IMG/VR virus record: IMGVR_UViG_3300033121_002344
Location: 3,888 to 67,887 of that record
Origin: a virus
Taxonomy: Duplodnaviria > Caudoviricetes
Length of the DNA stretch: 64,000 nt
Strand: one strand, 5' to 3'
Positions 34,046-64,000 of this stretch are shown here, one piece after another. The position numbers and the translations under genes are program-made. The notes under the pieces were generated by a model. It searched no databases and was not told the DNA's origin. It worked only from the letters and a program-made list of their open reading frames with translations. Numbering within the stretch: position 1 is the stretch's first letter; each line of letters begins with the position of its first letter.

Positions 34046-34066
34046 GCCCCGATCATCACGCCTCGC

Positions 34067-34372: not shown

Positions 34373-34476
34373 GGGTCGATCTTCACGCCTTCGAAGGAGG
34401 CCGAGCGGCTCGGGCCCGAGGAAGATGCTCCGCATCGCCAGGTGCTCCCGGAAGGCGTCCTCGTGCTCTTCCCAGG

Positions 34477-35759: not shown

Positions 35760-35766
35760 GCACCGA

Positions 35767-39358: not shown

Positions 39359-39368
39359 GCTCCGATCT

Positions 39369-39905
39369 TCACGCCGGCCAAGGTGTGAGGACGTCGAGGT
39401 CCTCGCCGTGCTGGAGCTCGTACCCCACCTCGTTGGCGAGGACCGGCCGCATCACCACGACCGCGGGATCGTCGTCGTGGTTGATCGGGAAGTCGGTCAG
39501 GTCGCCGAGCGCGGTGTGCTCCCCCGGATCTCTGAACCGCCAGCTGCCCTCGATCCCGTGGCGGGCCAGCTGATCTGCCGCCGGGCGCCGCACACCCCGG
39601 GCCTCGACCTGGAGGTGGTGCTCGGGCGCGTTGATCTGCTGGCGGAGCCTCTCGAAGAAGGCCTCGAAGACCCGGAAGCTCTCCAGCCGCTCGAACCGGA
39701 TCCGCACCGAGCGCCCGGGCAGCTGGTCGGTCAGGATGCCGTGGACCGACGGGTCCTCGTCCCCGATGGGGTGCGGCTCTTGGGTCTCCAGGAGGACGAG
39801 CTCGTTCGAGGTCTCGTGCCGCCCGTCCTCGGCCGAGAGCATCGTCGAGACCGTCCCGTGCCCGAAGGTGATGGTCAGTTGTTGGCCGTCCAGCTTGAAG
39901 CTCAT
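39369..39905 (-). CDS. Hypothetical protein
   Basis: 178 aa; GACGAT box. Confidence 0.6.
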   Translation of the reverse strand: MSFKLDGQQLTITFGHGTVSTMLSAEDGRHETSNELVLLETQEPHPIGDEDPSVHGILTDQLPGRSVRIRFERLESFRVFEAFFERLRQQINAPEHHLQVEARGVRRPAADQLARHGIEGSWRFRDPGEHTALGDLTDFPINHDDDPAVVVMRPVLANEVGYELQHGEDLDVLTPWPA

Positions 39906-39909
39906 GGGC

Positions 39910-40266
39910 CTATCGTCGCGCGCCGAACTCGAGCCGCAGCCCGAACATCGGCACCGGGAACACGTAGAGGATCCGCTTCCGCTGGTCCCAGAAGAGCCCC
40001 ACCCAGAAGTCGTACCAGGCGAACATCGGCACGACCCGCAGCACCACCGGCCGCCCGCTCGGCTGCTCGCCCAGCCGCCGACGGTAGTAGAGGGTCTCGA
40101 AGCCCGGCGCTGCGCACCGTTCCTCGGCAACCGTTCGCCCGACTTCGCTCGACCGCAGCCGTCCGTCCCAGTCGGCCTCGCAGTCAGCGAACCGCCACTG
40201 GTCGCCCCGGCAGATGGGCTCGTCCGCCTTCAAGAGCCGCCACCCTTCGCCCGCTTCGATCTCCAT
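39910..40266 (-). CDS. Hypothetical protein
   Basis: 118 aa; C-terminal FAWYDFWVGLFWD...YVFPVPMFGL. Confidence 0.6.
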   Translation of the reverse strand: MEIEAGEGWRLLKADEPICRGDQWRFADCEADWDGRLRSSEVGRTVAEERCAAPGFETLYYRRRLGEQPSGRPVVLRVVPMFAWYDFWVGLFWDQRKRILYVFPVPMFGLRLEFGARR

Positions 40267-43147: not shown

Positions 43148-43504
43148 TCACTCCTGCCGGGCCCGCGCCTCCTCTTCGCGCTCGGCCCGGGCGCTGATCA
43201 GGTCCGCGTGCTCGACGAGGGAGCGGGCGAGCTCCCTGGCCTGGCCGGGCAGCATGCCGATCCAGGAGATCGGCTTCCCGAAGTTGAGGACCACGTAGTC
43301 GTGGTGGACCGCAACCCCCACCCGGATCTCGCCCTCGTCCTGGGGGTTGAGCTTGCCGTCCGGAAAGGCGCCCGTGGGGCCGAGGGCCGTCTCGTCGCCG
43401 GTCTCCCGGGCCGCGGGAAGGGGGCCGTTGCGGCGCAGCTGCTCCATCGTCTCGGCGAAGAGGGCCTGGATCTCGGGGGAAGGGGTCGTGCTGTGGTGTG
43501 CCAT
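43148..43504 (-). CDS. Conserved phage hypothetical protein
   Basis: LGPTGAFPDGKLNPQDEGEI...LNFGKPISWIGM. Confidence 0.65.
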   Translation of the reverse strand: MAHHSTTPSPEIQALFAETMEQLRRNGPLPAARETGDETALGPTGAFPDGKLNPQDEGEIRVGVAVHHDYVVLNFGKPISWIGMLPGQARELARSLVEHADLISARAEREEEARARQE

Positions 43505-43511
43505 GGACCGA

Positions 43512-43733
43512 TCATCGCTTCGGACGACCAGGAGGCGGGTCCTTGACCCCGTAGACGTGGTAGCCGGAGTCCGCCAGCACCCGAAGGAAGTCGCGGATCC
43601 ACGCCTTTCGCTCGGGTCGCTTCATGTGCCGCAGACCCTGCAGAAGATCGTGGGCCCGGGCGCGCTGCGCCTCCGCCTTCCGCCGCGCCTCCTCGGCCGC
43701 CACCACCTTCCCCAGCACATACTCGTCACCCAC
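43512..43733 (-). CDS. Hypothetical protein
   Basis: 73 aa; GTG overlaps the upstream gene. Confidence 0.5.
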   Translation of the reverse strand: MGDEYVLGKVVAAEEARRKAEAQRARAHDLLQGLRHMKRPERKAWIRDFLRVLADSGYHVYGVKDPPPGRPKR

Positions 43734-45364: not shown

Positions 45365-45690
45365 CAGCGGCTCCCGATGAAGAGGCGCGTCAGGGCCAGG
45401 CGGTCCGAGCGCGCGAAGTAGAGGGGTGGACGACGGGTGAGGGTGATGATCTCCTGCTCGATCAGCATCCGGCGGAAGGCGAGCTCGAAGTTGGTCCCGA
45501 GGACGTCGATGGCGTTCCGGTTCGCCGCCTCGACCGCGAGGTGCTGGAAGGTCCGGGGTCGCCCATCCGCAAGCCCCTCGAAGAGGGCATCACGCCAGCT
45601 GTCGATCGGCTGGCCGAGCATCGGGAGCGAACGACGGGCGTGTGGCGAGGGGTCGTCGGGGCCAGCGACCAAGTAGGGACTCGAGCTCAC
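45364..45690 (-). CDS. Hypothetical protein
   Basis: 108 aa; GAAGAT box. Confidence 0.55.
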   Translation of the reverse strand: MSSSPYLVAGPDDPSPHARRSLPMLGQPIDSWRDALFEGLADGRPRTFQHLAVEAANRNAIDVLGTNFELAFRRMLIEQEIITLTRRPPLYFARSDRLALTRLFIGSR

Positions 45691-45723
45691 GTCCCTATCT
45701 TCGCGCGCGGCACGCGCAAACCG

Positions 45724-47046
45724 TCAGGCCCGCTTCGCCTTCTTGCCGGACCGCTCCTCCCAGCGCTGGACGATGGCATCGCAGTAGCCGGGCGCGAACT
45801 CGATCGCCCGACAGCGTCGCCCCATCTCCTCGGCCGCGATCACCTGCGAGCCCGAGCCCGCGAACGGCTCGAAGCAGACCTCGCCTTCGAGGGTGTGGAG
45901 GTCCATGGGCCGGCTGAAGAGCGCCACCGGCTTCTGGGTCGGGTGGATGCGGTCGTTCTCGCGCCCCACCTCCCAGACGGTGTCGAGGTCCCGCTTCCCG
46001 AACCACCGTGAGCGCCGCCCCCGGATCCATCCGTAGAGGGCCGTCTCGTGCCGCCAGTGGAAGTCGCCCCGCCCCATGATGAGGCTCGGCTTCACCCAGA
46101 CGATCTGCCGGTGGATCAGGAGGTCGATCGTCTTCACGGCCTCGATGAAGGGAAGGCTCTCCAACAGCACAGGGTGCCAGATGTAGATCGCCGGCCGCTC
46201 GCCGAAGTGGGGCTTGATGGCCGCCAAGAAGGCCGCCAAGAAGGCCTGAAGGGCCGCCCCCTGGAGACCGTCGTTCGCGATCGGGTCGTAGTCGGGGATC
46301 TTGCCGCCCGTGGCCTTCGCATTCGACTCCCTGATCTCGTCGTAGTTGACCCCGTAGGGCGGATCGGTGGCGAGCAGGTCCGCCTTCGCGCCCTCCATGA
46401 CCCGCGCGACGTCGCCGGGCACCGTCGAGTCCCCGCAGAGCAGCAGGTGGTCACCGAGCCGCCAGAGGTCGCCCTTCTTGGTCACCGGGTGCTTTGGCGG
46501 TACCGGGACCTCGGGCTCGGCCGCCCGCTCGGCCTTGCGCTGCTCCCGCTGGAAGTCCGCCAACAGCTGCTCGACGTCCTTCTGCTCGAACCCCGAGCCC
46601 GCCCGCAGCCCGCCCTCGAGTCCCTGGTAGAGGTCGGAGAGCATCGTCGCGTCCCAGCCCCCGAGCTCCACGAGCCTGTTGTCCGCCACCAGGTACGCCT
46701 CCGCCGAGGCCTCGCTCTCGAACGAGACCCCGCAGGTCACGGGCGCCAGCCACTGCCCCTCGGGCCCGACGAGGATCCGCTTCGGGGGCTCGCGCCCGGA
46801 CGCCTTCCAGGCCAGCAGACGATCGAGCCGGCCGTGGCCCGCCACCAACCGACCCGTCCGCTCGTCCCGCAGCATCGGCTGCACGTAGCCGAACTGCTCC
46901 AAGGAGACGTCGAGCTTCTCGTCCGCGTGGAGCTTTGGGTTTCGTGGCCACCGCTGGATCTCGTCGATGGCGAAGTACTGGATGGAGATCCGCTCCGGGG
47001 CCGGGGCCGGCGCTGGAGCCGCCGCGACCGCGCGACGACGGCTCAC
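45724..47046 (-). CDS. ParB/Srx N-terminal domain fused to an N4/N6 DNA methyltransferase
   Basis: PRNPK...LVAGHGRL...ADNR; DLLATDPPY; HPTQKP; FEPFAGSGS. Confidence 0.9.
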   Translation of the reverse strand: MSRRRAVAAAPAPAPAPERISIQYFAIDEIQRWPRNPKLHADEKLDVSLEQFGYVQPMLRDERTGRLVAGHGRLDRLLAWKASGREPPKRILVGPEGQWLAPVTCGVSFESEASAEAYLVADNRLVELGGWDATMLSDLYQGLEGGLRAGSGFEQKDVEQLLADFQREQRKAERAAEPEVPVPPKHPVTKKGDLWRLGDHLLLCGDSTVPGDVARVMEGAKADLLATDPPYGVNYDEIRESNAKATGGKIPDYDPIANDGLQGAALQAFLAAFLAAIKPHFGERPAIYIWHPVLLESLPFIEAVKTIDLLIHRQIVWVKPSLIMGRGDFHWRHETALYGWIRGRRSRWFGKRDLDTVWEVGRENDRIHPTQKPVALFSRPMDLHTLEGEVCFEPFAGSGSQVIAAEEMGRRCRAIEFAPGYCDAIVQRWEERSGKKAKRA

Positions 47047-48882: not shown

Positions 48883-49377
48883 CTAGCGCTCCTCCTGGAG
48901 GGCCCGGAACTCCTCCAGGACGCCTTCCGCCGTCAGCCCTCGGGGGAGGGCCTTCCGGGCGCGGAGCCACCGCTCGAAGGCCTCGCCGACCGGGAGCCGT
49001 TCCTCGAGCCCCGCCACGGCCTCCACGTTGCGCTCAGGCCGGCTCGGGACGATCGGCCGGACGTGGGTCGCCCCCGCGCGCCGAAGGGCCTGTTCGGCCT
49101 CGTGGGGCGCGAAGACCGAGGTCTCGGTCAGCTGGACCAGCACCCGGACGATCGCGCCGCCGACCGAGGCTCCGGACGCCCAGGCATCGTAGTCGGCCTG
49201 GCTGGCCAGCCGCGGGTCCACGAGCCGCAGGGTCAGGAGGTTCGCCGCCGGGAGAGGGTGGAAGTGGGGTAGCTCGATGGAGGGGGCCTCGGGAGCCAAG
49301 GGGGGAACTTGTGTAACGGGGGTATCCGTTCCCGAGGCCCCCTCCGTCGATTGAGATCTGCGTTTGCGCGCCGCCAT
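48883..49377 (-). CDS. Probable SbcD/gp47 C-terminal (capping) domain as a separate gene
   Basis: GAIVRVLV...QALRRAGATHVRPIV...VGEAFERWL; directly after a short SbcD. Confidence 0.5.
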   Translation of the reverse strand: MAARKRRSQSTEGASGTDTPVTQVPPLAPEAPSIELPHFHPLPAANLLTLRLVDPRLASQADYDAWASGASVGGAIVRVLVQLTETSVFAPHEAEQALRRAGATHVRPIVPSRPERNVEAVAGLEERLPVGEAFERWLRARKALPRGLTAEGVLEEFRALQEER

Positions 49378-49387
49378 GACCTGATCA

Positions 49388-50128
49388 TCACAGGTCGAGC
49401 AGCACGTAGCCCTTCGGCTCCATCTCCTCGCCGAAGTCGAGGCGGTCGAGCGACCCTACCACCTGCACCTTCTCCCGCACCACCTGAGGCTTGTGGACGT
49501 GGCCGGCGTAGATGCGCTGCACCCGCGGGTCCTCCTCCATCCAGCGAGGGAGCTCCAGGGCGCCGCCCCGCAGCATCCGCCCCTCCGAGCCCGTCGTCGC
49601 CCCGGGAATGTCGAGGTGGCAGAACACCACCACCTTCGCGTCCGCCGAGAGCTCCGCGAACGTCGATCGCAGGCTCGTCTCCAGCCACTCGACCGCGCTC
49701 AGCCGCCGGCCCTCGACCTCGGGCGCATGGGCGCCGCTCAGGTAGGGCAGGTAGAGGATCGTCTTGCTGCCGATGACCTCGGTCGCCGGGGTCTCGACCA
49801 CCCGCACCAGCAGGCCCGCCAACACCGAGACCGTCGCCCGCGCCCCCACCCCGTGGCTGGAGTCGTCGACCACGTCGTGGTTGCCGGCCAGCAGGACCGA
49901 CCGACACTCGATCCGCTCCAGGAAGCGCCGCGTGCTCGCCAGCGCCCGGATCGTCCGGTTCCCGCTGTCGGGGTCCGTGAGGTCCCCGAGGTGGAGGAAG
50001 AGGTCGACCTTCTCCTGGTCGATGATCCGCTCCAGCCGCGCCAGCTGGGCCTCGAAGGAGACCCAGCGCTCCACCCCCGACCGCGCCGTTTGGTCGAGGT
50101 GCCAGTCAGTGCTCACCAGCGTCTTCAC
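49388..50128 (-). CDS. sbcD: SbcD/Mre11-like metallophosphoesterase nuclease (catalytic domain only)
   Basis: STDWHL, HLGDL, AGNHD, FCH, GHVH, GSLDRLDFGE...KGY. Confidence 0.85.
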   Translation of the reverse strand: MKTLVSTDWHLDQTARSGVERWVSFEAQLARLERIIDQEKVDLFLHLGDLTDPDSGNRTIRALASTRRFLERIECRSVLLAGNHDVVDDSSHGVGARATVSVLAGLLVRVVETPATEVIGSKTILYLPYLSGAHAPEVEGRRLSAVEWLETSLRSTFAELSADAKVVVFCHLDIPGATTGSEGRMLRGGALELPRWMEEDPRVQRIYAGHVHKPQVVREKVQVVGSLDRLDFGEEMEPKGYVLLDL

Positions 50129-53100: not shown

Positions 53101-53718
53101 CTACTCGCGGTGCTGGATGCGATCGCGGAGCGGTGAGGCTCCGCCAGTGCTGGTGATGAGCGAGCGCAGATCCGAGAGCGAATCGGCGCGCCGCTTCCAG
53201 GCGTCTTCGAGCGACTCGAGGACGTGCGTGGCCGCCTGGAAGTCGCGGTACCGCCGCTCGCGCTCCCGGACCTCGTCCGGCCAGGTCGCGATCACGCGGT
53301 CCCGCACCATGTCGTTCGTGATCTGCTTGCTCTGGATCTCGCCCGACTTCTTGGCCTCGCTGAGGGCGAGGAGCGCGCCGTCCTTCTTCGCCTCCCACCA
53401 CGCCTCGTGGGAGATCTTGAAGAGCTCGTACTCGCGCCGAGCCCGCGCCGAGAGCTTCGCCGCCATGTAGCGCCGGCTCTGGGCGCTGTTGATCGCCTCG
53501 ATGAGCGCCGAGGCCGTCGCCGGATCGCGCTCCCGCAGCCCCTCTTCGAGCTCCCGGTGGACCTGCTCGATGTTGAGCTCGATGATCCCCGTGATGACCG
53601 GGGACCAATTCTCGTCCAGGACGTCCGCCTCCGCGGCGCTGATCGCCCGCCGGGAGGGCACCGATACACGACTTCGGACCGCCCTCACGGGCGGCTTCGC
53701 TTCTTCCTCTGTGGCCAT
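53101..53718 (-). CDS. UvsY-like recombination mediator
   Basis: All-helical; QITNDMVRDRV...LESLEDAWKRRADSL pattern; next to SSB and RecA. Confidence 0.5.
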   Translation of the reverse strand: MATEEEAKPPVRAVRSRVSVPSRRAISAAEADVLDENWSPVITGIIELNIEQVHRELEEGLRERDPATASALIEAINSAQSRRYMAAKLSARARREYELFKISHEAWWEAKKDGALLALSEAKKSGEIQSKQITNDMVRDRVIATWPDEVRERERRYRDFQAATHVLESLEDAWKRRADSLSDLRSLITSTGGASPLRDRIQHRE

Positions 53719-53739
53719 GCTCGTATCATCGCCGCTGCC

Positions 53740-56283
53740 TCACGCATCCCAGGAGACGCCGAGCGAACGCAGCGCCGTCGCGAACCGCACGTCCTCCCGC
53801 GGATGCCGGACCTTCAACCCCGGGACCACGAGCTCGTAGACGCGGCGCTCCTCAGAGGCCCGCACATCGACCCGCAGGTGATGGCTGCCCGGGAAGGCCC
53901 CCAGGAGCTCGCGCAGCGCCGCCGCCTCCGACCAGCTGTCCTCGACCCGCAGCACCAGCCGGTTCGCCGGCTGACGGACCACCCGCCTCGGCTCGCCCCC
54001 GAAGAGGTCGCCCTGTCGCGGGTCCTGCTGGCGCGGCAACACGCACTCGAGCTCCGGCCAGCCCGCCCCCGGGAAGGCCGCCTCCAAGACCCGCTGGGTC
54101 GGCGGGTAGACGTGGTCGTTCCAGTAGAGCGGGAAGCTGACCTGCCCTGCGAGAGGCCCGAGCTCCGTGGGGTGCAGGGCCCCCTTGTCGGTCATCAGGA
54201 ACGGGATCTTCTGCCCCTCGTCGACCTCGACCCCGCGCTCCACCATCCGCGCCGCCACCTCGACGTGGTGGGGCTTGTTGGCGTAGTCGCCCAGCGCCTT
54301 CGTGATCGTCTTGCTGAGCGTCAGGTCTTCGTTCGGCACCCCGCCCGCGAGCAGCGCCTGCCGGCGGTCCTCCACCACCGAGCGGATCTCCTCCGAGGTC
54401 GCGCCCCCGAGCACCAGGTCCACCACCTCGCGCTGCAGGCTGCGCGCCGCTCGACAGACGTCGGACCGCACAATCTCGAGCCCCCGCACGTCCGCCGGGA
54501 TGTTCTCGCCCGCGACCTTGCCCTTGTAGACGGCGAACTTCCCCGCGTACTTCTTCGAGGCCGTCACCAGCACGACCCCAAAGCGCTTCTCGTACCCGAT
54601 CGAGATCTCGCCGGGCTTCGCCCCGTGGGTGGCGACGAGCTCCGGCACCATCTTCTGGTTGACCTCGTCCTGGACGGCCTTCGCGTCCTCGTCGGTTCCC
54701 GTGAAGGCCACCGAGTCCGTGTCGCCGAAGATCAGCCGGTGGCCTCGCCGGCTCACGATGCCGATCGTGTTGGCGAGCAGCATCCGCCCCACCGAGGTCA
54801 CGCTCTCGCCGATCGCCGAGTGGTAGAAGCGTGACCCCTGGGAGAGCACGATCCCGTAGAAGGCGTTGATGACGGCCTTGCAGCCGTCGCTCAGCTGCCC
54901 GAGCTCCGCGTGCTTCGCGGACCCCACCTCCTCCTTGGCCTGCGCGTCCGAGTAGCGCTTGCGCAGCCGGATCAGGTCGAGGAGGGCCGCCGGGATGTGG
55001 CCCTCGGGGTTCGAGCGGAATCGCGCCAGGATCTTGCCGGTCGGCTTGCCCCGCTCGTCGGTGAGCGGGACCGCGATATCGCCCGAGGGGTCCGGGGTCT
55101 CGGGCGAGAGGTTGAAGGCGCGGATGATCGACGGGTACATCCGCGAGTAGTCCAAGACCGCCACCGACCGGTGGAGCCCCACCACCGCCTCGGGGACGAA
55201 GGCACCGCGCGCCTTCGCCCCATCACGCTCGACGTCGCGATAGCGGGTCGGGAAGTGGAAGCCGACCTCGAAGCCCCGCTGCAGCATCTTCCCGTCGATG
55301 AGGGTCGAGGGGTAGAGGGAGTCGCGCCCGGGGAAGATGCGGCAGATCGCGCAGACCGCCAGGTGGAGCCGCACGAAGCCGGTCTTCGCCTCGATCCCCA
55401 CCATCAGGTCGACGTCCTGGTCATTGTACTCGCGCGAGAGCTCTGGGGCGTGCTCCCAGGCCCACTCGATGGCCGCCGCCGCGCCCTCGACCTGCGCCCC
55501 CAGGGCCCGCGCCCGCGCCTCGATCGGCACCTTCCGCTCCCCGAGCAGCGCCTCCCCGATGGCTTCGAGGGCGAAGCTGGAGGTGGTGCCGCCGTCCTTG
55601 CCCCGGAGAAAGTACTTCTTGAAGCACCGGAGGTGGTCGAGCCAGAAGGTCTCCTCGGCGTCGAACGAGACCCCGAGGATCTCGCAGCGCCGTCGGATCA
55701 CCTGCTCATCGAACCGAGCCCCGTTCCAAGCGATCGCGATATCGTGCCTGGCCAGCAGCCGGACCAGCGTCTCCAAGAGGACCCGCTCGGCCGCGTCCGT
55801 CTTCGCCGCGAGGCGCGCGTGGCCCCGCTTCCCCTCCGAGCTCCGCCACGAGAAGGAGAGGATCCGCTCCTGGCCGCCCGGGTCGTCCCACGACCGGATC
55901 CGCTCGGTCTCCAGGTCGTAGTAGAAGAGCCGCCAGTCCTGGGCGATCTGGATCGACGGGCGCTCGATGACGAACCGCCGCACCGGGTCAATGTCGGCCT
56001 CCAGCGGCGAGATCCGACGCGGGACGAAGACCTCGCGTTGGAAGTGGACCAGCCGCCCCTCGCGGTTCCCGTTCGCCCGGATGGGCTCCGGCCACTCGAC
56101 GAACCGGTAGGCCGCGTGCGGGCCCTCGGTGACCATCCGATGCCAGCTGCGGGGTAGGAGATCGACCTCGCGCACGGGCAGGTAGAAGCCATCGCGCGCA
56201 CCCGTCTCGAAGACGCCCCCGGAGCCGCGGAGGAAGATGCGCCCGCGGTCGAAGCGCGCGTGCCTGAGAACGTCCTTCGTCAC
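53740..56283 (-). CDS. Family B DNA polymerase with 3'-5' exonuclease
   Basis: YDLET, AWNGARFD, YNDQD; LDYSRMYPSII, KAVINAFYG, FGDTDS; start re-called to GTG 56283. Confidence 0.95.
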   Translation of the reverse strand: MTKDVLRHARFDRGRIFLRGSGGVFETGARDGFYLPVREVDLLPRSWHRMVTEGPHAAYRFVEWPEPIRANGNREGRLVHFQREVFVPRRISPLEADIDPVRRFVIERPSIQIAQDWRLFYYDLETERIRSWDDPGGQERILSFSWRSSEGKRGHARLAAKTDAAERVLLETLVRLLARHDIAIAWNGARFDEQVIRRRCEILGVSFDAEETFWLDHLRCFKKYFLRGKDGGTTSSFALEAIGEALLGERKVPIEARARALGAQVEGAAAAIEWAWEHAPELSREYNDQDVDLMVGIEAKTGFVRLHLAVCAICRIFPGRDSLYPSTLIDGKMLQRGFEVGFHFPTRYRDVERDGAKARGAFVPEAVVGLHRSVAVLDYSRMYPSIIRAFNLSPETPDPSGDIAVPLTDERGKPTGKILARFRSNPEGHIPAALLDLIRLRKRYSDAQAKEEVGSAKHAELGQLSDGCKAVINAFYGIVLSQGSRFYHSAIGESVTSVGRMLLANTIGIVSRRGHRLIFGDTDSVAFTGTDEDAKAVQDEVNQKMVPELVATHGAKPGEISIGYEKRFGVVLVTASKKYAGKFAVYKGKVAGENIPADVRGLEIVRSDVCRAARSLQREVVDLVLGGATSEEIRSVVEDRRQALLAGGVPNEDLTLSKTITKALGDYANKPHHVEVAARMVERGVEVDEGQKIPFLMTDKGALHPTELGPLAGQVSFPLYWNDHVYPPTQRVLEAAFPGAGWPELECVLPRQQDPRQGDLFGGEPRRVVRQPANRLVLRVEDSWSEAAALRELLGAFPGSHHLRVDVRASEERRVYELVVPGLKVRHPREDVRFATALRSLGVSWDA

Positions 56284-56436
56284 AGGCCGATCTTCACAGG
56301 GCCAGCGTCCATGGGTCCAGACGCGCGAAGGGGTCGGGAGGAGCGTCGCCACTCCTCCCGACCCCAACCCGACAACCAGGGAACCTCAGGCGAGCCCCAT
56401 CTTCGCCCAGCGCAGCGACGCCGGGCAAGGGCCAAT

Positions 56437-56448
56437 CAACCCGGGTTG
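56437..56448. repeat. Dispersed palindrome copy 11 (AAT-core-CTT)
   Basis: Exact core 2 nt past the stop at 56451. Confidence 0.95.
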
Positions 56449-56450
56449 CT

Positions 56451-57479
56451 TCAGTCGACCTTCTGCTTCGGGCAGTGGATCTTGAAGCCCTCGCCGCGGG
56501 GCAGGACCTCGACCACGAACTTCGCGTCGCCGATCCGGAAGCGACCCTGGCCCGCGCCGCGGTCCCAGTTGGTCCACTTGCCCTCGAAGACCACCGTCCC
56601 CATGTCCAGCGTGGCCTTGACCACCACCTTGTTCTCGTGACCGCGCCGCTCGGGGCGCTCGCGCTCGGAGACCTTCTCGCCGTTCGCCTTCTTGGCCGCG
56701 AAGTCGGCCTTGCGCTGCTCGTGGACCTTGTTGGCGAGGGCCGCCTTTGAGGGCTTCTCGACCTTCGCCTCCTCGGTCAGCTTCGCGCGGATCTCCGGGT
56801 CGGGGATCTTCGCCAGCAGCTTGAGGTGGCTGATCGTCAGCCCGGCGATCGACTTCTCGTCCGGGTAGGCGCGCGCCACCCGGATGAAGTCGACCCCGGC
56901 CGTCCGCGAGAAGCCGCACTGCTTCTCCACGTAGTCGGCGAAGCTGTCGAACTTGCCGGCCCAGAGGTTCTTGTCGTGGATCTCCAGGAGCCGCCGGCCG
57001 ATCTCCCAGCCGTTCTTCGCGAGGTTGTCGCGGAGCGACCGGACCTCGGTGGTGAGGGCAGCGAGGCGCGCCGCCACCTCGCCGGGGTTCGTGGTCGGCT
57101 CGACCTTCCCCTTGTCCGCCCCCGCCCCGACGTCGATCACCGGACCGCCGTCCGTCCCGACCACCGCCAGCTTCGCCGCCGCACCCTTGGCCTTCTTCTC
57201 GGCCTTCGCGCTCTTGGCCGCCGCCTGCTCCGCCAATTCCTCGTCGTCGAACTCGAACTTCGCCGCGCAGCCCGGGCAGTGGGTGAGGTCCTTGGTACCC
57301 GGGGACGGGAAGCCGCAGACCGTGCATTCGAGGACCTCGTCGTTCGGGTAGAGGCCGGCCAGCTTCGCCGCCAGGCTCGTGGCGAGCTCGGTCGGGGTCC
57401 ATCCGCCTTCGGCCGGAACCTTGTGCTTCTTGGCGACCTTCTGCAGGTGTTCGGGGTTGAGCTTGGTAGCGGTCAGCAT
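56451..57479 (-). CDS. Zn-ribbon plus DUF3102-like helical DNA-binding protein
   Basis: CTVC...CPGC; WEIGRRLLEIHDKNLW...SFADYVEKQCGFSRTAG. Confidence 0.6.
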   Translation of the reverse strand: MLTATKLNPEHLQKVAKKHKVPAEGGWTPTELATSLAAKLAGLYPNDEVLECTVCGFPSPGTKDLTHCPGCAAKFEFDDEELAEQAAAKSAKAEKKAKGAAAKLAVVGTDGGPVIDVGAGADKGKVEPTTNPGEVAARLAALTTEVRSLRDNLAKNGWEIGRRLLEIHDKNLWAGKFDSFADYVEKQCGFSRTAGVDFIRVARAYPDEKSIAGLTISHLKLLAKIPDPEIRAKLTEEAKVEKPSKAALANKVHEQRKADFAAKKANGEKVSERERPERRGHENKVVVKATLDMGTVVFEGKWTNWDRGAGQGRFRIGDAKFVVEVLPRGEGFKIHCPKQKVD

Positions 57480-58138
57480 GACGTCGTCTCCTCCAGGATC
57501 GGGTTGATGAATGCGAGGTTGATCAGGGTCGAGTCCTTCGAGGGCACCCGCTCACCCCCGATCATCGCGAGAAAGATCGTGTACTGCCGGGGCCCGAGGG
57601 CCGCCCGGGCGCGGTCGATCAGGAGCCGGAGCTCGGCCGCGTGCTCCTGGGTCGGCTCGCAGGCCAGCGCCAGCTGCAGCCCCGCCGGCTCGTGCGGGTC
57701 CTCGTGCTCGGGAAGCTCGTCGAGGAGGACCGGCATGTCGCCGTGGAACCGCTCGCGCCGCACGTACCGGTAGACCTCGTGGTCCATCGCGCGCCCCACC
57801 TTCCGGTGGACGTACTCCAGGAGGTCGAAGCGGGGCCGGGGCGCGCGCCCCTTCTCCAGGAGCTCGGGGTGCTGGCGCGCCACATGGGCCTCGTAGGCCT
57901 CCTCCGTGCGCGCCCCCCGCCGACACCCCGGGCAGCGGAGATGGTAGCTCTGGACCGCCTCCCAGGCCGCCAGGAGGCCCAGCTGTTCGAGGTCCTGGAG
58001 CTCCAGCGGTAGCCGAGCCCATGAAGCGCGCCCGTAGAAGAACCGCGCCATCCGTTGAAAGTAGCGGCTCTGCTCGGCCGCGAACTTGGTGAAGCTGATC
58101 TCGCCCGCCCGTAGGCGGGTCACGTCCTGCAGGTTCAA
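57473..58138 (-). CDS. Sigma70-family factor: region 2 with an inserted C2H2 zinc finger, truncated region 4
   Basis: QDLEQLGLLAAWEAVQSY / FDLLEYVHRKVGRAMDHEVYR; CPGC-x12-H-x4-H insert; TTG start with GGGAGG SD. Confidence 0.7.
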   Translation of the reverse strand: MNLQDVTRLRAGEISFTKFAAEQSRYFQRMARFFYGRASWARLPLELQDLEQLGLLAAWEAVQSYHLRCPGCRRGARTEEAYEAHVARQHPELLEKGRAPRPRFDLLEYVHRKVGRAMDHEVYRYVRRERFHGDMPVLLDELPEHEDPHEPAGLQLALACEPTQEHAAELRLLIDRARAALGPRQYTIFLAMIGGERVPSKDSTLINLAFINPILEETTSC

Positions 58139-58225
58139 TCGTTCCTCCCTCGTTGCCGGCGGTCCGGGTCAGCTTCGGACCAACCCGACCGCCCTCGGAA
58201 TATGCGTGCCTTGCGTCGAAGTCAA

Positions 58226-59710
58226 CTAGGCGCTGACCAGGTAGAGCTCCTGCTTGGCCCGCGTGACCGCGACGTACCAGATGTTCGCCTCTTCGGTCGA
58301 GCGGCTCGGGCGGAAGGTGCTGGTCAGGAGGAAGACCCGGTCGCGCTCCAGCCCCTTGGCCTTGTGGACCGTGCTGAAGACCACCTTCGTGGTGGCGTCG
58401 TCATCGCGGAAGAGGCTCTCCAGCTTCCGCCGCACCGCCTCGACCGTGGGCTCGCCTTCCGCGATGGCCAGGATCGCCTCGACCTGATCGCTCACCAGGT
58501 CGGCCCGCGCCTCCTTGTTGAGCCGGAGGGCGCGCTCCCGCTCCCGCGACTCGTAGGCCCGCAGCCAGGACTCGAGGTCCGCCAGGTCCTGGGCGCCCGA
58601 CTTGTCGATCAGGCCGAGGAGCGTCTTCCCGATATCGCGCCCCTGGATGCAGGCCGGGATCCCGCGCCGCAGGAACCCGAGGCAACCCGAGACCAGCGGG
58701 GCGTTGGCGCGCCCGAGGACGAAGTCGCCGGGCTTCGCGAGGGCCTCGAAGCGCTGGTAGGAGACCTGCTCGACCAGCCCCTCCGGGGCCTCGTCGGCCG
58801 CCCGGTATTGCGGGACGATCTGCTGGGCGATCGCCACCACCTTCTTCGGGCACCGGTAGGTGATGCTGAGGGGGAGGACCGCCGCCCCGAGGGTCTTCGC
58901 CATCTCGTCCATGCCCGAGGCGTGCGAGCCCCGGAACCCGTAGATGGCCTGCCGGCTGTCGCCGACGATGATGATCCGCCCGTTCTCCCGGACCTCGCCG
59001 CGCGCCAGGCTCAGCTGCGCCGCGTTCATGTCCTGGGCCTCGTCGACCACCACCACGTCGTACCGGTGGGAGGCGAGCCCGAACTTCGCCGGGAACCAGA
59101 CCATGTCGTCGAAGTCGATCTCGTCCGTCTTCTCGGCCGCGAGCTCGATGGCCCGGGCCGCCGCCTCGGCGAGGAGGCCGGCCGGGAACTCCTCGTCCTC
59201 GATCGAGTAGTCGATCGCCGCCATCGTCAGCCCCGGCATGTCCTCGACCAGGAGGTTCTTCCCGAGGGCCGCCAGCTTCGCGACCTTGTTGACGTCGGTC
59301 CAGGTCGGCCGGGTCTCCTTGCGCCGCGCGTCGTAGCGCATCCGCTCGGGGAGGACCTCGGTGAGGGCCTGCTCCGCCATCGTGGCCTTCTTCTCGTCGT
59401 TGACCCGCACCGTCCGGAAGCGCCGCCGGATGAGGGCGAAGCCGACGCCGTGCAGGGTCTTGACCTCGACCCCGCGAGGCGCCCGGGCCTTGAGCTCGGT
59501 CTCGATGCTCTTGTTGAAGGCGCAGAGGAGGGTCGAGAGCCCCTCCGGGATCCGCTTCGCCGCCTCGACGATCGTCGTCGTCTTCCCGGTACCCGCGAGG
59601 GCCTCGACCTTGAGGTGGCCGGTCCCGTTCGCGAAGTTGTCGTAGATGGCGGTCTGGAGGGGGGACCAGGTCTTGGCGGTCTTGGTCGTCGTGAACTCGG
59701 TCTGGGTCAT
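58226..59710 (-). CDS. UvrD/Rep-type SF1 helicase
   Basis: ALAGTGKTT, CAFNK, VVVDEAQD, VGDSRQAIYGFRG, TYRCP, STVHKAKGLE, YVAVTRAK. Confidence 0.95.
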   Translation of the reverse strand: MTQTEFTTTKTAKTWSPLQTAIYDNFANGTGHLKVEALAGTGKTTTIVEAAKRIPEGLSTLLCAFNKSIETELKARAPRGVEVKTLHGVGFALIRRRFRTVRVNDEKKATMAEQALTEVLPERMRYDARRKETRPTWTDVNKVAKLAALGKNLLVEDMPGLTMAAIDYSIEDEEFPAGLLAEAAARAIELAAEKTDEIDFDDMVWFPAKFGLASHRYDVVVVDEAQDMNAAQLSLARGEVRENGRIIIVGDSRQAIYGFRGSHASGMDEMAKTLGAAVLPLSITYRCPKKVVAIAQQIVPQYRAADEAPEGLVEQVSYQRFEALAKPGDFVLGRANAPLVSGCLGFLRRGIPACIQGRDIGKTLLGLIDKSGAQDLADLESWLRAYESRERERALRLNKEARADLVSDQVEAILAIAEGEPTVEAVRRKLESLFRDDDATTKVVFSTVHKAKGLERDRVFLLTSTFRPSRSTEEANIWYVAVTRAKQELYLVSA

Positions 59711-59749
59711 CTCAGCCTCGCCGCCGGTCGCCACTTCGACCGGCGGAAT

Positions 59750-59761
59750 CAACCCGGGTTG
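59750..59761. repeat. Dispersed palindrome copy 12 (AAT-core-CTT)
   Basis: Exact core in the helicase 5' leader. Confidence 0.95.
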
Positions 59762-59793
59762 CTTCCGGGATCGTGCTCCGTGCTCGATGACCG

Positions 59794-59823
59794 ACAATTA
59801 AAGCGTGACCCGCGCGCTGTCAA
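59794..59823 (-). promoter_or_regulatory. Host-type promoter (TTGACA-16-TTAATTGT)
   Basis: Consensus -35; same -10 block as the accessory-region copies. Confidence 0.75.
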
Positions 59824-60308
59824 CCCGCTTTCTTCTCCTTCTTCGCTTCTTCGACGACCCACCCCGAAGACTTGAATTGGCCGTGGGTGTACCGCTCGAT
59901 CCGAGCCGCGAGGGCCAGGCTCGGCAGCATCGTCCCGGCCGCCAGTCGGTTGAGGGTCGAGACCGAGGTCTCCAGAGCCTCGGCCACATCCGTCTTCGAC
60001 CGGCCGTCCAGCCACCGCGCGAAGGGGTGCTCGGGGTTCGTCTGCGGCCGACCCGGGGACCGCTCGATCCCCAGCTTCCCCAGCGCCGAGCCCTCGATCT
60101 GCCGCGCCCGCTCCCGGGTGACCGGGGGGACGAGGGCCCTGGCGACTTCGTCGAGGGTCCGCTGCTCCTTCCCCAGGAAGCGCTGCTGGAGCACTTCGAG
60201 CTCCCGGTCGGAGAGCTCCAGGACCTTCTTCGGGCTCTTGAGGGCCCGCTCGACCTGGGTTCGGACGTCAGCCCGCGAGGGGCGCTGGTTCTTCTTCGAA
60301 TTACGCAT
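59820..60308 (-). CDS. Two-domain regulator: RpoD-like sigma region 4 plus Xre/Cro HTH
   Basis: LSDRELEVLQQRF...RTLDEVARALVPPVTRERARQIEGSALGKL; SKTDVAEALETSVSTLNRLAAGTMLPSL. Confidence 0.8.
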   Translation of the reverse strand: MRNSKKNQRPSRADVRTQVERALKSPKKVLELSDRELEVLQQRFLGKEQRTLDEVARALVPPVTRERARQIEGSALGKLGIERSPGRPQTNPEHPFARWLDGRSKTDVAEALETSVSTLNRLAAGTMLPSLALAARIERYTHGQFKSSGWVVEEAKKEKKAG

Positions 60309-60337: not shown

Positions 60338-61366
60338 CTATACCTTTCCGCCCCATTTACGCAACCGAGCCGGCTCCAAGCCGGTCGAATACCGGGCCGG
60401 TGGGGCCTCGTCGATCAGCCCCCTGACCCGCTCCGGGTCGTGGTCGGGTTGGAGGCCGTCGGGCAGCTGGACCGACCGCACCAGGTGTCCGAACCGGAGG
60501 GAGCTCGCCTGGTAGACGAACTTCCGTCCCGCCCCGTCGCCGTCCGGGCAGAGCACGATCTCGCGCCAGGGCTCCAGCAGCTGCGTGCGCTCCTCCGACC
60601 AGGCCGACCCGCAGGCCGCCACCACGTTGCGCTCACCGGCCTTCCGGAGCGCCACCGCGCCCCAGATGCCCTCGACCACCACCACCCGCGGGAACGTGGG
60701 GTCGAGCTCGTCGTAGCCCCACAGGGAGAGCTCCTTCCGAGCCCCCGCGTCCCGCCGGCCCGAGAGCGCCTTCGGGGACCGCGGGTCTCGCGCCTCGTAG
60801 AGGCGCGCCACGAAGTCGACCATTTCGTCCCGCACCACCACCGGGATGATCAGCCGGCTCCCGTAGCTGACCACCTCCGGGCGCCGCTCAGGCGCCGTCG
60901 CGAAGATCCCGAACCGCTCCACGTCGCCCAGGCCGATCCCACGGCCGCTCAAGTAGCGCAGGGCCGGTGACCGGTCGAATCCGTCGATCGCCCGCCACAG
61001 CGGCACGCTGCCCCGCGGGAAGCGAAGCTGGGGGGCCTGGTCGAGCGCCACCTTCGACCGCCACCCGCTGGAGCGCGCCGAGCGAGGCATCCGCAGCCCG
61101 GCGAACCCAGCGAGCCACTCCCGGGCCGCCGCCCGGTCGAGACCCCTGACCACCGCCACGAGGTCGATCGGCCCGCCCCCGAACCCGCACCCGTAGCAGA
61201 CGTGGAGGCCCGCCTTCGGGCCGGTGGGGCAGATCTGCCAGGAGCCCGGGCCTGGCCGGCCCGAGTGCTGATGGGCCGGGTCCGGGCAAGGTCCGCGAAG
61301 CTCCGAGCCCGAGCGCCGGGCCACGACCCCGAGCTCCGCGAGCAGCTTCGCGACGTCGACCCTCAC
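60338..61366 (-). CDS. DnaG-like primase (Zn-binding plus TOPRIM)
   Basis: CPDPAH...CYGC, YLSGRGI, VVVEGIWG, CPDGDGAG. Confidence 0.9.
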   Translation of the reverse strand: MRVDVAKLLAELGVVARRSGSELRGPCPDPAHQHSGRPGPGSWQICPTGPKAGLHVCYGCGFGGGPIDLVAVVRGLDRAAAREWLAGFAGLRMPRSARSSGWRSKVALDQAPQLRFPRGSVPLWRAIDGFDRSPALRYLSGRGIGLGDVERFGIFATAPERRPEVVSYGSRLIIPVVVRDEMVDFVARLYEARDPRSPKALSGRRDAGARKELSLWGYDELDPTFPRVVVVEGIWGAVALRKAGERNVVAACGSAWSEERTQLLEPWREIVLCPDGDGAGRKFVYQASSLRFGHLVRSVQLPDGLQPDHDPERVRGLIDEAPPARYSTGLEPARLRKWGGKV

Positions 61367-62163
61367 TCGCTTCGTTCCTCGCCGAGCGCGAGGACGCCCT
61401 GGCTAAGCCGCCGCGCCGCCGCCTCGCAGAACCGCTCGTCGATCTCGATCCCGACCGCGCGCCGCCTCATCTCCCGCGCCGCCACCAAGGTCGAGCCCGC
61501 GCCCATCGTCGGGTCGAGGATCAGCCCTCCGACCGGGCACGAGTACGAGATCAGCGGACGCAGGATCCCGAGAGGCTTCTGGGTGGGGTGGTCCGCCGAG
61601 CCGTGGCAGTTTCGCGCGTAGACGACGGACCGCATGAGCCGCGGACCTCCATCGCGCGACACGTAGGCGCTGTCCCCGATGTTGCCGGTGTGGGTGGGGC
61701 GCGTCTTCCGGCGCACGGTCCGGGCCGTCGCATCGGCGGTCGTCACCGGGGCCTTGTAGACGTCCTCCCAGCGAGCCGTCGACCGGTAGAGGTGGAGCGC
61801 GTGCTCGTGGACGCGACGGAACCGGTCGGTGTGGAAGCCGCTTCCGTTCTGCTTCTCCCAGACGAGGTCCTGCGAGACCCTCCAGCCGAGCGCCGCGATC
61901 TGATCGGCCTGCGCCATGAACATCCGCAGCGAGCCGAAGCACCAAACGGAGCCCGCGTCCCGCACGGTGGGGCCGGCCGCACGAAGCCACGACAGGTCGC
62001 GCTCGTCCCAGGCGAGGGACGTGTCCCCGTAGGGCGGGTCGGCGAGAAGCAGATCGACGCTTCCGCCCGCGACCGGAGCGGCGAGGGACATCCAGTCGGC
62101 GAGGACGTCCCGGCAATCGCCGAGGTAGATCGTGATGCCGCCGTGCTCGTAGTAGGGCTTCAT
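61363..62163 (-). CDS. Orphan N4/N6 DNA methyltransferase
   Basis: GDCRDVL, LADPPY, HPTQKP, LDPTMGAGST; start re-called to ATG 62163. Confidence 0.9.
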   Translation of the reverse strand: MKPYYEHGGITIYLGDCRDVLADWMSLAAPVAGGSVDLLLADPPYGDTSLAWDERDLSWLRAAGPTVRDAGSVWCFGSLRMFMAQADQIAALGWRVSQDLVWEKQNGSGFHTDRFRRVHEHALHLYRSTARWEDVYKAPVTTADATARTVRRKTRPTHTGNIGDSAYVSRDGGPRLMRSVVYARNCHGSADHPTQKPLGILRPLISYSCPVGGLILDPTMGAGSTLVAAREMRRRAVGIEIDERFCEAAARRLSQGVLALGEERSE

Positions 62164-63551
62164 TCGGTCGGCCCGTCCTCGCGCTCGAAGATGCTCAGGT
62201 CCACCGCCGCCTCGTTGTCGATCAGGTACTTCGCGCCCTCGAAGTCGTAGCGGACGCAGAAGGGGAAGGGCCCACGGCGCTGCTTCAGGCAGTAGAGGTC
62301 GAGGGTGTCGCGCATGTTCCGCCGCCGGCTCTTCGGGGCGCGGATCATCGGCCGGTCGACGCCGAAGATCAGGTCGAGCTCCTCCTCGAAGGCCCCCGCG
62401 TTCTTGATGTGCTCCAGCGACGGAGGCCCCTCGACGCCCTGGCGGTTGAGGTGGTGGACCAGGCAGATATGGACCCCGTAGCGCTTCGCGATCGACTCGC
62501 GGATGCGGATCAGCGCCTGGGTGACGGCCTGCTCGCGTCGATCGCGGAGCGCCTTCCCGACGACGTCGAAGACGAAGAAGCCGAAGCCCTCCTGGGAGAG
62601 GGCCGCCACCACGCTCTCGACGTGGTCGAGGTTCCGTTCGTTCTGGTCGGCCCACTTGTCGGTCGACTGCTCCAGGTGAATAAACGGGTTCTCTTCGATG
62701 ACGAAGCAGTCGTTGCGGAAGAGCTCGGCCGCGTCTGCGATCCGCAGCTTCTCCTGATCGGAGAGGTGCTTGGTGTGCTTTGTGTACCGCTCCGCCGGGA
62801 TCCCCGCCTCGGCCGCGATCATCGAATCGAGGTAGTCGTCACGCCCCATCTCCCAGGCCCCCAGGTAGGTCCGCTTCGAGTTGCGAACCCGCCAGCGGAC
62901 GAGGTGGGAGACGAAGGCGCTCTTGCCCATGCCGGGCCGGCCGACGATCAGGCTCACCGTGGCCGGCGCGAAGCCCGCGCCCAGCATCGAGTCGAGGATC
63001 ACGTTCCCGCTCGGCTCGAAGACGGAGCCGACGATCGACCGCATCCGCATCGTCTCGTAGTAGGCGTCGACGACCGCACCACCCCGCTGGATGTTCCGGA
63101 GGGCGTTGCGGCCGACTCGATCGCCGGCCACCCGCAGCGCACCCGCGAGCGCATCACCGGGCACCTTCGGGTCCTCGCAGAGCTCGACGAGCTTCGGTAC
63201 GTGGTCCCGGAGGAGCTCGAACTTCGCCGCGTCGAGCCGCAGTCGGTCGAGGTGGTAGTCGACGTTCCGGTTCGGCTGGTACTCGGCCTCGATGGCCCGC
63301 AAGTACGCAAACCCGCCGAAGTCCGCGCCGCCGACGAGCGTCTGGAAGGTGTCCTCGCTCCAGGCCATGCCGGCGCGGTCGAGGGCCGTGAGGCCGCGCA
63401 GGATGATCCGGTGGCGCTGGTCGCCGAAGTCGTTGGGCCGGATCGAGACCATGAGCCGCCGCCGCTCCTTGGCGTCGTGGATCATCGTCGCCAGCACGAC
63501 CCGCTCGTTCGCGAGGTCGAACTCCACCACCCTGCCACCGCGGTCCGCCAC
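62160..63551 (-). CDS. DnaB-like replicative helicase
   Basis: ERVVLATMI N-domain, GRPGMGKS, HHLNR, IKNAGAFEEELD; start re-called to GTG 63551. Confidence 0.9.
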   Translation of the reverse strand: MADRGGRVVEFDLANERVVLATMIHDAKERRRLMVSIRPNDFGDQRHRIILRGLTALDRAGMAWSEDTFQTLVGGADFGGFAYLRAIEAEYQPNRNVDYHLDRLRLDAAKFELLRDHVPKLVELCEDPKVPGDALAGALRVAGDRVGRNALRNIQRGGAVVDAYYETMRMRSIVGSVFEPSGNVILDSMLGAGFAPATVSLIVGRPGMGKSAFVSHLVRWRVRNSKRTYLGAWEMGRDDYLDSMIAAEAGIPAERYTKHTKHLSDQEKLRIADAAELFRNDCFVIEENPFIHLEQSTDKWADQNERNLDHVESVVAALSQEGFGFFVFDVVGKALRDRREQAVTQALIRIRESIAKRYGVHICLVHHLNRQGVEGPPSLEHIKNAGAFEEELDLIFGVDRPMIRAPKSRRRNMRDTLDLYCLKQRRGPFPFCVRYDFEGAKYLIDNEAAVDLSIFEREDGPTE

Positions 63552-63615
63552 GGGCTGATCTTCGCGCAACGGGCCTCGTCCCGACAGCAGGAGGCCCGTC
63601 GGGCCAGCTGCCGTA

Positions 63616-64000
63616 TCAACCCGGGTTGCTTCGTCGCCGGTCGCGGAGCTCTTCGAGCTCGGCCTCGGTGAGGAGGTCCCGCATCTCGCCGGCCCGCCAG
63701 GCGTCGAGCACACGCTGCACCCGGCCGCCGATGACGTCCGGGTCGAGGTGCGGGAACGGAGGCCCGGGCCACCGCTCGCCCTTCTCCTTCCGAGCCCGCC
63801 ACCAGCGAGGCACCGTCGAGAGCGCGAGCCGGAACTCCACACGGTCGGCCGCGAAGGTGCGGTTGATCGTCGTGTTGATGAGCCGCCAGAGCCGCTCCCG
63901 GTCCGCCTTCGTTCGGGGCCAGGCCGTCTCGTCCTCGACCCCGAAGAGCCGGTGGATGTTCGACCGCCAGGCCGCACAGAACTCCGCCGCGTTGATCGCC
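63616..64000 (-). CDS. 3' part of a gene upstream of the helicase (possible initiator/loader)
   Basis: Frame open from the window edge to TGA 63616; ends SNPG*. Confidence 0.55.
   Translation of the reverse strand, partial: AINAAEFCAAWRSNIHRLFGVEDETAWPRTKADRERLWRLINTTINRTFAADRVEFRLALSTVPRWWRARKEKGERWPGPPFPHLDPDVIGGRVQRVLDAWRAGEMRDLLTEAELEELRDRRRSNPG
63617..63628. repeat. Dispersed palindrome copy 13 (TAT-core-CTT)
   Basis: Exact core; supplies the TGA stop. Confidence 0.95.

Follow-up and report, generated by a model that had tools for sequence, protein, structure and literature searches.

Promoter reading by sigma factors is ascribed to their helical regions 2, 3 and 4. In extracytoplasmic function (ECF) sigmas as in primary sigmas, the flipped "master" base of the -10 element is held in a pocket formed by the loop between regions 2.2 and 2.3, the specificity loop, and this loop is disordered in the free ECF holoenzyme, sigma1.2 being missing (PMC6411747). 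Promoters with extra contacts beside the -10 box need neither sigma4 nor a -35 element, and in phage P23-45 the middle and late genes have promoters of this extended -10 class (PMC3950348). A reclassification of the ECF group remarked on phage sigmas only in that they diverge and in some cases include other domains (PMC7826278). Here we describe a gene from a 64,000-nucleotide stretch of phage DNA (the window), which comprises bases 3888-67887 of the linear 67,887-bp IMG/VR virus record IMGVR_UViG_3300033121_002344. The record derives from an uncultured phage and is estimated to be 84% complete; the window has a G+C content of ~70%, and essentially all of its genes, as called from the G+C content of third codon positions (GC3), lie on the minus strand. 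The gene encodes a predicted sigma factor in which a C2H2 zinc finger occupies the specificity loop, and which is referred to below as the zinc-finger sigma.

When 1.84 billion cluster representatives were searched exhaustively with HMMER, the zinc-finger sigma matched 38 proteins at E<1e-3 (26 of these at <1e-10), most of them 170-245 aa long. Its family is small, with ~30 clusters at 50% identity, found in metagenomes only, for which no name was present in any source checked. A tblastn search of 50,697 GenBank phages gave no match to the zinc-finger sigma, and searches of GTDB genomes found no relatives. No relatives were found in IMG/VR with the query, the family alignment A2, the family members P0006 and P0010, PolB or the alignment of the downstream partner protein, and a related-locus search of JGI metagenomes gave a single 1.6-kb contig (L005). 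In a word-index protein search, the query alone recovered only itself and the use of a profile recovered four proteins. The query alone had no hit in Pfam or PHROGs, and a phmmer search with it against the PDB returned nothing meaningful; a weak Sigma70_r2 (PF04542) match of 12.5 bits was seen in its own genome at window positions 57944-58018. Against the NCBIfam profile sigma70-ECF (TIGR02937) the query reached 13.2 bits (E 0.05), compared with a cut-off of 42.9 bits.

The relatives identified the protein more clearly. Pfam Sigma70_r2 matched 19 of the 31 aligned family members (best 5e-10), and two relatives exceeded its curated cut-off of 24 bits (P0032, 39.5 bits; P0038, 37.1 bits). TIGR02937 matched 20 of the 31 (best 1.5e-8), and nearly every other named profile match among these members was to a sigma factor. 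The nearest Atlas clusters were viral Sigma70_r2 proteins (score 0.95). With the family alignment, AlphaFold produced a model with a mean pLDDT of 89.4, with values of 93-98 per 10-residue block across residues 1-130; the model from the single sequence was unusable (44). Sigma factors were the top Foldseek matches of the model and accounted for ~27 of the top 35 rows in a Foldseek-independent comparison with 48,161 PDB representatives by VIA. The best VIA match was Streptomyces coelicolor ShbA (9m84_F; Z 8.7, rmsd 3.0 Å over 91 residues), and other sigma2 matches included pro-sigmaK, SigK, SigC, AlgU, SigW, sigmaE region 2, CnrH, RpoS and T4 gp55 (7d7d_F, Z 6.6). The alignment to sigma2 domains covered model residues 1-132, and with SigB, sigma32, SigI6 and sigma28 the alignment extended over both domains of the model. 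An earlier note, made from the letters of the window, had called the protein a sigma factor, and the sigma2 fold of the alignment-based model and the sigma profile matches of the relatives bear this out. By sequence and predicted structure, the zinc-finger protein is a sigma-70-family factor of the ECF-like (group-4-type) kind.

The individual sigma regions could be followed through the model. In the N-terminal part, D49, L50, Q52 and W59 were invariant or nearly so in alignments A1 and A2, which are four positions of the D-L-x-Q-[E/D]...W motif of the core-binding helix in region 2.2; in finger-bearing members, I, L or V stood at the position after the Gln, where the motif has an acidic residue. 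The long helix equivalent to regions 2.3-2.4 carried H111, G115, H120, R127 and R128, which were invariant in A2 and kept in 22-29 of 29 sequences in A1. This helix was followed by an acidic linker of ECF-like length (33 residues; pLDDT 49-66) and a sigma4 remnant, with no sigma3 domain between sigma2 and the remnant in the model.

Between regions 2.2 and 2.3, an insert of ~38 residues replaced the specificity loop. As the earlier note had described, it contains the motif C-x2-C-x12-H-x4-H, with C69, C72, H85 and H90 as the predicted ligands; a Pro-rich return strand is also part of the insert. The finger was conserved in 29 of the 31 aligned relatives, all of which kept the four ligands; 28 had the C-x2-C spacing and P0037 had C-x3-C. 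The two finger-less relatives lacked the whole insert. The described interruption of region 2 was also recovered in the profile matches: in finger-bearing members the Sigma70_r2 match always ended at profile position 42 of 71, just ahead of the finger, whereas in the finger-less P0032 it continued to position 63. When P0032 was aligned to CnrH and FliA, the residues DPERGV occupied the finger position. In the predicted structure the insert formed a beta-beta-alpha unit by DSSP (strands 67-68 and 75-76, helix 79-89), with block pLDDT of 93-98. The family profile matched classical fingers of the PDB in the same columns (Aart, 4e-8; a consensus finger, 6e-6; ZNF524, 1.4e-5). Pfam zf-C2H2_4 matched 14 of the 31 members (best E 0.003) and zf-C2H2 matched 9 (best 0.013), all below the gathering threshold, and the query itself had no zf-C2H2 hit.

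Beyond the ligands, conservation in the finger region extended to Y65, R68, R74, an aromatic residue or Leu at position 82, R88/R89, G97 and P102. The insert was basic, with a mean net charge of +3.4 compared with -2.5 for the preceding 2.1-2.2 helix, and among finger-bearing members Arg was the majority residue at each of positions 66, 68, 74, 88 and 89 (12-24 of 29). From its point of insertion, the finger would lie beside the -11 pocket, where the transcription bubble has its upstream edge. Three large multi-finger proteins (P0027-P0029, 693-2179 aa) were also recovered as candidate relatives. They were rejected as sigma relatives because only the finger segment (residues 58-96) matched, and did so repeatedly, at 5-9 repeats. 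The fingers of these proteins are of the type ...H....HP[DE]F..., and the H-x4-H finger type of the sigma thus also occurs in large zinc-finger arrays.

The earlier note had also held that region 4.1 begins and that the -35-reading helix-turn-helix (HTH) is missing. The HTH is indeed incomplete; region 4 as a whole is reduced to a three-helix remnant rather than absent. The model placed helices at residues 164-180, 183-193 and 200-220, and the remnant matched sigma-H region 4 (3mzy_A; Z 5.9, rmsd 2.5 Å over 59 residues) and SigA region 4 (6ono_B; Z 5.2) by VIA. Its two 4.1 helices were recognizable (L-G-P-R-Q-Y-T-I-F-L-A-M-I-G-G), the first HTH helix was missing and the last helix was acidic and hydrophobic. 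Only 26 residues follow the 4.1 helix in the query, too few for both HTH helices, and thus there is no complete HTH. Pfam Sigma70_r4 gave no match in 10 members at permissive thresholds (E<=1 for the query, E<=5 for nine relatives) and was absent from the 25 families listed for the 31-member scan. A hidden frameshift that would restore a C-terminal HTH was rejected, as the other two frames held nothing sigma4-like. The tail after the 4.1 helix was 0-42 aa long in members with the finger (typically 20-30), compared with 52-57 aa in the two finger-less members. Gain of the finger therefore appears, from this contrast with two finger-less representatives, to have accompanied erosion of the -35-reading HTH. 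The remnant probably still docks on the beta-flap.

A set of candidate target promoters was found in the same window. The pattern GYGANGAT-N6-[A/G/T]TG occurred at 16 exact sites, all on the gene strand, compared with 0.42 ± 0.70 in shuffled sequences, and the looser pattern GA-N-GAT-N6-start occurred at 18 sites with exact spacing and at several more with a spacing of ±1. The logo of the 18 sites read G-14, Y-13, G-12, A-11, W-10, G-9, A-8, T-7, C/A-6, G-5, G-4 and C-1, with A/G at +1 in the start codon; A-11 and T-7 of the -10 element were invariant. No position from -50 to -15 rose above ~0.4 bit in this logo, and the boxes thus had no -35 conservation, consistent with a sigma for which recognition by sigma4 is not needed. 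With the constant spacing of 6 nt, transcription is expected to begin on the start codon itself, and leaderless mRNAs are therefore implied. Genes preceded by a box lacked a Shine-Dalgarno sequence, whereas other phage genes had GGAGG-type sites. Collectively, the boxes look like phage-specific promoters for leaderless mRNAs.

Two of the boxes lie inside the long open reading frames (ORFs) called for the family-B DNA polymerase (PolB) and the DnaB helicase. The true start of PolB is probably GTG 56283, 28 codons shorter than the ORF call, and that of DnaB is probably GTG 63551, ~142 codons shorter; the latter agrees with the position of the N-terminal domain of DnaB, which starts only at residue 154 of the called ORF. 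Most boxes contain GATC (as GATGATC), and the phage carries two N6/N4 DNA methylase genes. The zinc-finger sigma gave the sole Sigma70_r2 signal on the phage record, which makes its link to the boxes the most economical one, and on balance we lean towards the view that it uses them. No RNA polymerase domain emerged from Pfam scans of 16 larger ORFs, and the largest ORF is the 875-aa PolB; the phage must thus depend on the RNA polymerase of its host.

The gene for the zinc-finger sigma lies in a replication module. In the direction of transcription, the order is DnaB, methylase, primase, a protein that combines sigma4 with an Xre-type HTH, UvrD, zinc-finger sigma, a Zn-ribbon/DUF3102 protein and PolB. 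The reading frame of the zinc-finger sigma, for which a TTG start and normal codon use had been reported, is open over 221 codons with a GC3 of 0.92 and is a real gene. Homologues have N termini that begin MN..DL at the alignment column of the TTG start, which confirms that start. The TTGACT that had been noted is present on the gene strand, as a -35-like hexamer directly after the helicase stop codon and as one of seven intergenic TTGAC[T/A/C] sites; a strict sigma70 promoter scan called no -10 element behind it, nor any promoter in the region. A structured leader had been claimed as well. The hairpin exists, and the 71-nt leader folds at -28 kcal/mol, but its stability is not above that of shuffled GC-rich sequence (z = -0.86), which rules it out as a special element.

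The gene that follows encodes a helical protein with a Zn ribbon and resemblance to DUF3102. Its Pfam matches to Zn_ribbon_4 and DUF3102 were both below the cut-offs, a match to DUF1016_N was weak, and no PDB relative was found by sequence; its structural neighbours in the Atlas were commonest in Myxococcota, which is only a hint of the host. The association of the two genes recurred in L005, a 1,588-bp JGI metagenome contig (65% G+C) that kept the order of UvrD helicase, sigma and Zn-ribbon/DUF3102 protein, with overlaps at both junctions (22 nt between sigma and partner). Compared with the window, identity was 61% for the helicase C terminus, 39% for the sigma (P0005) and 29% for the partner (E 4e-26). 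Furthermore, in the 554-aa protein P0021, present on 7 contigs, a zinc-finger sigma and the Zn-ribbon/DUF3102 protein are naturally joined in frame; P0021 gave a weak HTH_ParB hit below the cut-off. The Zn-ribbon/DUF3102 protein is probably a working partner of the sigma.

The two-gene sigma operon is closed by the palindrome CAACCCGGGTTG, which contains CCCGGG and occurred in 13 exact copies in the window (0 expected) with conserved flanks, at 4181, 12379, 13425, 21010, 28289, 31070, 36530, 40322, 44752, 47819, 56437, 59750 and 63617. The copies lay mostly in leaders or just past stop codons. The palindrome is too short for a stable RNA hairpin, and thus a site for a dimeric DNA-binding protein is more likely. 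The seven intergenic TTGAC[T/A/C] sites (minus strand; 59823, 58225, 48295, 47806, 41120, 25570 and 23914) shared GC-rich flanks (tcGGCGCG...), and several had a TAATTG-type -10 element at 17-18 nt. They form a second, host-sigma70-like class of promoters, which is probably active early. The 162-aa protein encoded upstream of UvrD combined a primary-sigma-like region 4.2 (Sigma70_r4, 1.4e-8), including the recognition helix TRERARQIE, with its Xre-type HTH; no other protein of the record exceeded the curated Sigma70_r4 cut-off. Coordinates of all features are given in Table 1.

Table 1. Features of the zinc-finger sigma locus, its neighbours and the candidate promoter boxes, in window coordinates
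Feature	Position	Strand	Remark
Zinc-finger sigma coding sequence (P0001)	57473-58138	-	221 aa; stop codon included; TTG start
N-terminal helices and region 2.1-2.2	57941-58138	-	residues 1-66
C2H2 finger and Pro-rich return strand	57827-57940	-	residues 67-104
Long helix equivalent to regions 2.3-2.4	57749-57826	-	residues 105-130
Acidic linker	57650-57748	-	residues 131-163
Three-helix sigma4 remnant	57476-57649	-	residues 164-221
Shine-Dalgarno GGGAGG	58144-58149	-	5 nt ahead of TTG start
Leader hairpin	58158-58193	-	between promoter-like site and ribosome-binding site
TTGACT, -35-like hexamer	58220-58225	-	candidate host-sigma70-type early promoter of sigma operon
Zn-ribbon + DUF3102-like helical protein	56451-57479	-	342 aa; overlaps sigma stop codon (ATGCTGA); conserved partner
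CAACCCGGGTTG palindrome	56437-56448	.	3 nt after partner stop codon
DnaB helicase	62160-63977	-	
DNA methylase	61363-62655	-	
DNA methylase, second gene	45724-47046	-	
Toprim primase	60338-61366	-	
Sigma70_r4 + Xre HTH protein	59820-60308	-	162 aa
UvrD-type helicase	58226-59797	-	
Family-B DNA polymerase (PolB)	53740-56367	-	
GCGAAGAT-N6-GTG box	63549-63565	-	inside long DnaB ORF
GTGAAGAT-N6-GTG box	56281-56297	-	inside long PolB ORF; candidate target promoter
GCGATGAT-N6-ATG box	53716-53732	-	candidate target promoter
GTGATGAT-N6-ATG box	49375-49391	-	
GCGAAGAT-N6-GTG box	45688-45704	-	
GCGATGAT-N6-ATG box	43502-43518	-	
GCGACGAT-N6-ATG box	39903-39919	-	
GTGAAGAT-N6-ATG box	39356-39372	-	
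GCGATGAT-N6-ATG box	37748-37764	-	
GCGATGAT-N6-ATG box	35757-35773	-	
GTGAAGAT-N6-ATG box	34370-34386	-	
GTGATGAT-N6-ATG box	34043-34059	-	
GTGATGAT-N6-ATG box	32873-32889	-	
GCGATGAT-N6-ATG box	27840-27856	-	
GCGATGAT-N6-ATG box	18094-18110	-	
GCGACGAT-N6-ATG box	13864-13880	-	

We propose, with somewhat more belief than doubt, that the zinc-finger sigma is an early phage ECF-like factor that directs host RNA polymerase to promoters without a -35 element and with leaderless transcripts. It would be produced early, from the host-type TTGACT promoter. On the host core RNA polymerase, its sigma2 domain would bind the beta-prime coiled-coil, the linker would follow the ECF path toward the RNA exit channel, and the sigma4 remnant would be anchored on the beta-flap and read no -35 box. 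Regions 2.3-2.4 would read GAWGAT, and the holoenzyme would initiate at the ~20 G-Y-G-A-W-G-A-T boxes that lie exactly 6 nt ahead of start codons. The basic finger would add binding energy or specificity that normally comes from region 3.0 or sigma4, either through contacts with the duplex at -14/-13 or the non-template strand at -6 to -4, or by shaping the pocket of the flipped base in advance, and the translationally coupled Zn-ribbon/DUF3102 protein would cooperate with the sigma.

Several observations weigh against this mechanism. The query itself lies above no curated family cut-off, neither that of Pfam Sigma70_r2 nor that of NCBIfam sigma70-ECF, and all structural Z-scores are below 9, a range that helical folds can reach by chance. 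The residue after the Gln of helix 2.2, hydrophobic where the finger is present, is Glu in ordinary sigmas and in the finger-less relatives. The finger of the query has T, E, A and A at the positions where bases are canonically contacted, which is not a typical DNA-reading set. The link from the protein to the boxes depends solely on its being the only sigma-like gene of a record that is 84% complete, and it may be that a host sigma reads the boxes or that they are translation signals. Despite the modest Z-scores, the sigma identity was upheld because the uniform list of structural matches, the profile matches and the Atlas neighbours agree, and we regard the protein as in all likelihood a functional sigma.

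The role of the finger admits several answers. That it contacts nucleic acid at all is close to an even question, which we would answer, by a little, in the negative; that it contacts -14/-13 specifically, as the earlier note proposed for the GY of the boxes, is rather unlikely. It could instead touch the non-template strand at -6 to -4, which the boxes likewise conserve, in place of the missing sigma1.2, or merely stiffen the pocket. The fullest form of the proposal can be put forward only tentatively: here the embedded C2H2 finger would be a promoter-reading module for the G-14/Y-13 duplex or the C-6/G-5/G-4 non-template strand, replacing the job of region 3.0 and sigma4, perhaps together with the DUF3102 partner, fused or coupled, which would be a co-activator loaded on DNA. 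A zinc module with a structural or regulatory function, serving as a loop stiffener or as a zinc/redox switch and not as a reader of nucleic acid, is a possibility that we view with some doubt. It would suit a loop that is disordered in ECF sigmas without DNA (PMC6411747), and the base-contact positions of the query's finger vary widely across the family. The consistently basic insert and the arginines that are its majority residues argue against a purely structural role, as does the loss of the sigma4 HTH in finger-bearing members, which suggests that the finger compensates for lost DNA contacts.

Other explanations concern the company in which the zinc-finger sigma works. The gene after an ECF sigma usually encodes its anti-sigma, and the sigma might function only as one half of a two-part factor, with the Zn-ribbon/DUF3102 protein as an anti-sigma or as a co-activator that binds DNA and stands in for sigma4. 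In the latter case it could, for instance, be a ParB-HTH-like protein that loads at the 13 palindromes, by analogy with the activation of gp55 by T4 gp45. The overlap of the two genes in both phages, a helicase-sigma-partner order kept while the sigmas are only 39% identical, the natural fusion on 7 contigs, the weak HTH_ParB and DUF3102 hits and the palindrome that closes the operon all point this way. We nevertheless think such an obligate pair unlikely, if worth keeping in view: no anti-sigma domain was detected and the Pfam hits did not include a ParB N-terminal domain, the DUF3102 and HTH_ParB hits are below their cut-offs in a partner that has no PDB relative by sequence, the boxes show no conservation upstream of -15, and it would be strange for a sigma to be fused permanently to its own inhibitor. 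It is improbable that the 162-aa protein supplies sigma4 in trans to form a bipartite sigma. Its Sigma70_r4 match is above the cut-off and the sole such hit on the record, it keeps the TRERARQIE helix of primary sigmas, and its gene lies 1.7 kb upstream on the same strand; however, the box promoters have no TTGAC-like or other -35 signal for a TTGACA-type sigma4 to read, and the zinc-finger sigma retains 4.1 helices of its own. Because the TTGAC sites form a separate class with TAATTG-type -10 boxes, the 162-aa protein more likely acts on these host-type early promoters than completes the zinc-finger sigma. Finally, the protein might not be an initiation factor, being instead a decoy with a sigma2 fold that shuts off host transcription by occupying the host's core RNA polymerase, or a DNA-binding protein of the replication module. 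The position of its gene between UvrD helicase and PolB, its failure to exceed any curated sigma cut-off and the altered residue after the Gln in its core-binding helix would agree with this. A mere decoy would not need the linker length, the sigma4 remnant and the 2.3-2.4-like helix, all of which are kept, and the abundant, separate class of promoters without a -35 element has no other candidate factor on the record; we hold this explanation to be very unlikely.

If the finger contacts promoter DNA, it would represent a third way, beside region 3.0 and sigma4, to stabilize a sigma on its promoter, and a compact, possibly re-targetable module for orthogonal transcription. If it reads the promoter, the protein would be a sigma that selects leaderless promoters without a -35 element by means of a eukaryote-type zinc finger. 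The case is directly testable, as the protein is small, the alignment-based model is confident, and the same genome offers ~20 candidate promoters of fixed geometry and a host-type promoter class as controls. No paper was found on a sigma factor with a C2H2 finger or with an insertion in the -10 specificity loop, and no solved structure or named family was found with this layout of a finger in the loop and a worn sigma4.

Among known systems, the best structural and profile matches are the ECF (group 4) sigmas, including ShbA (9m84), SigH, SigK and SigC of Mycobacterium tuberculosis, Escherichia coli sigmaE and Pseudomonas aeruginosa AlgU. They share with the zinc-finger sigma the sigma2-linker-sigma4 layout without sigma3, the sigma2 fold, the D, L, Q and W of the region 2.2 helix, though not the acidic residue after the Gln, and the length of the linker. 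In these factors, however, the specificity loop has 6-8 residues, whereas in the zinc-finger sigma it is replaced by the ~38-residue insert with the C2H2 finger; their sigma4 HTH is complete, whereas here its first helix is missing. T4 gp55 is likewise a phage factor of the sigma2 type that uses a -10-like box only, with no -35, and is encoded in or near a replication module. It has no sigma4 and depends on gp33 and the gp45 clamp, whereas the zinc-finger sigma has a sigma4 remnant and the finger. With extended -10 promoters and gp39 of P23-45, extra contacts just upstream of the -10 element likewise spare the -35 element and sigma4 (PMC3950348). In that strategy a small phage protein repositions the sigma of the host, which stays in use, and the extra motif is TG at -15/-14, whereas the phage studied here encodes a new sigma and its conserved bases are G-14, Y-13 and G-12. 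The finger itself shares with classical C2H2 fingers such as those of Aart and ZNF524 the ligand spacing, the beta-beta-alpha fold and the aromatic or Leu core residue three positions before the first His. It differs from them in being a single finger inside the loop of another domain, and in having Ala in place of the Phe after the second Cys.

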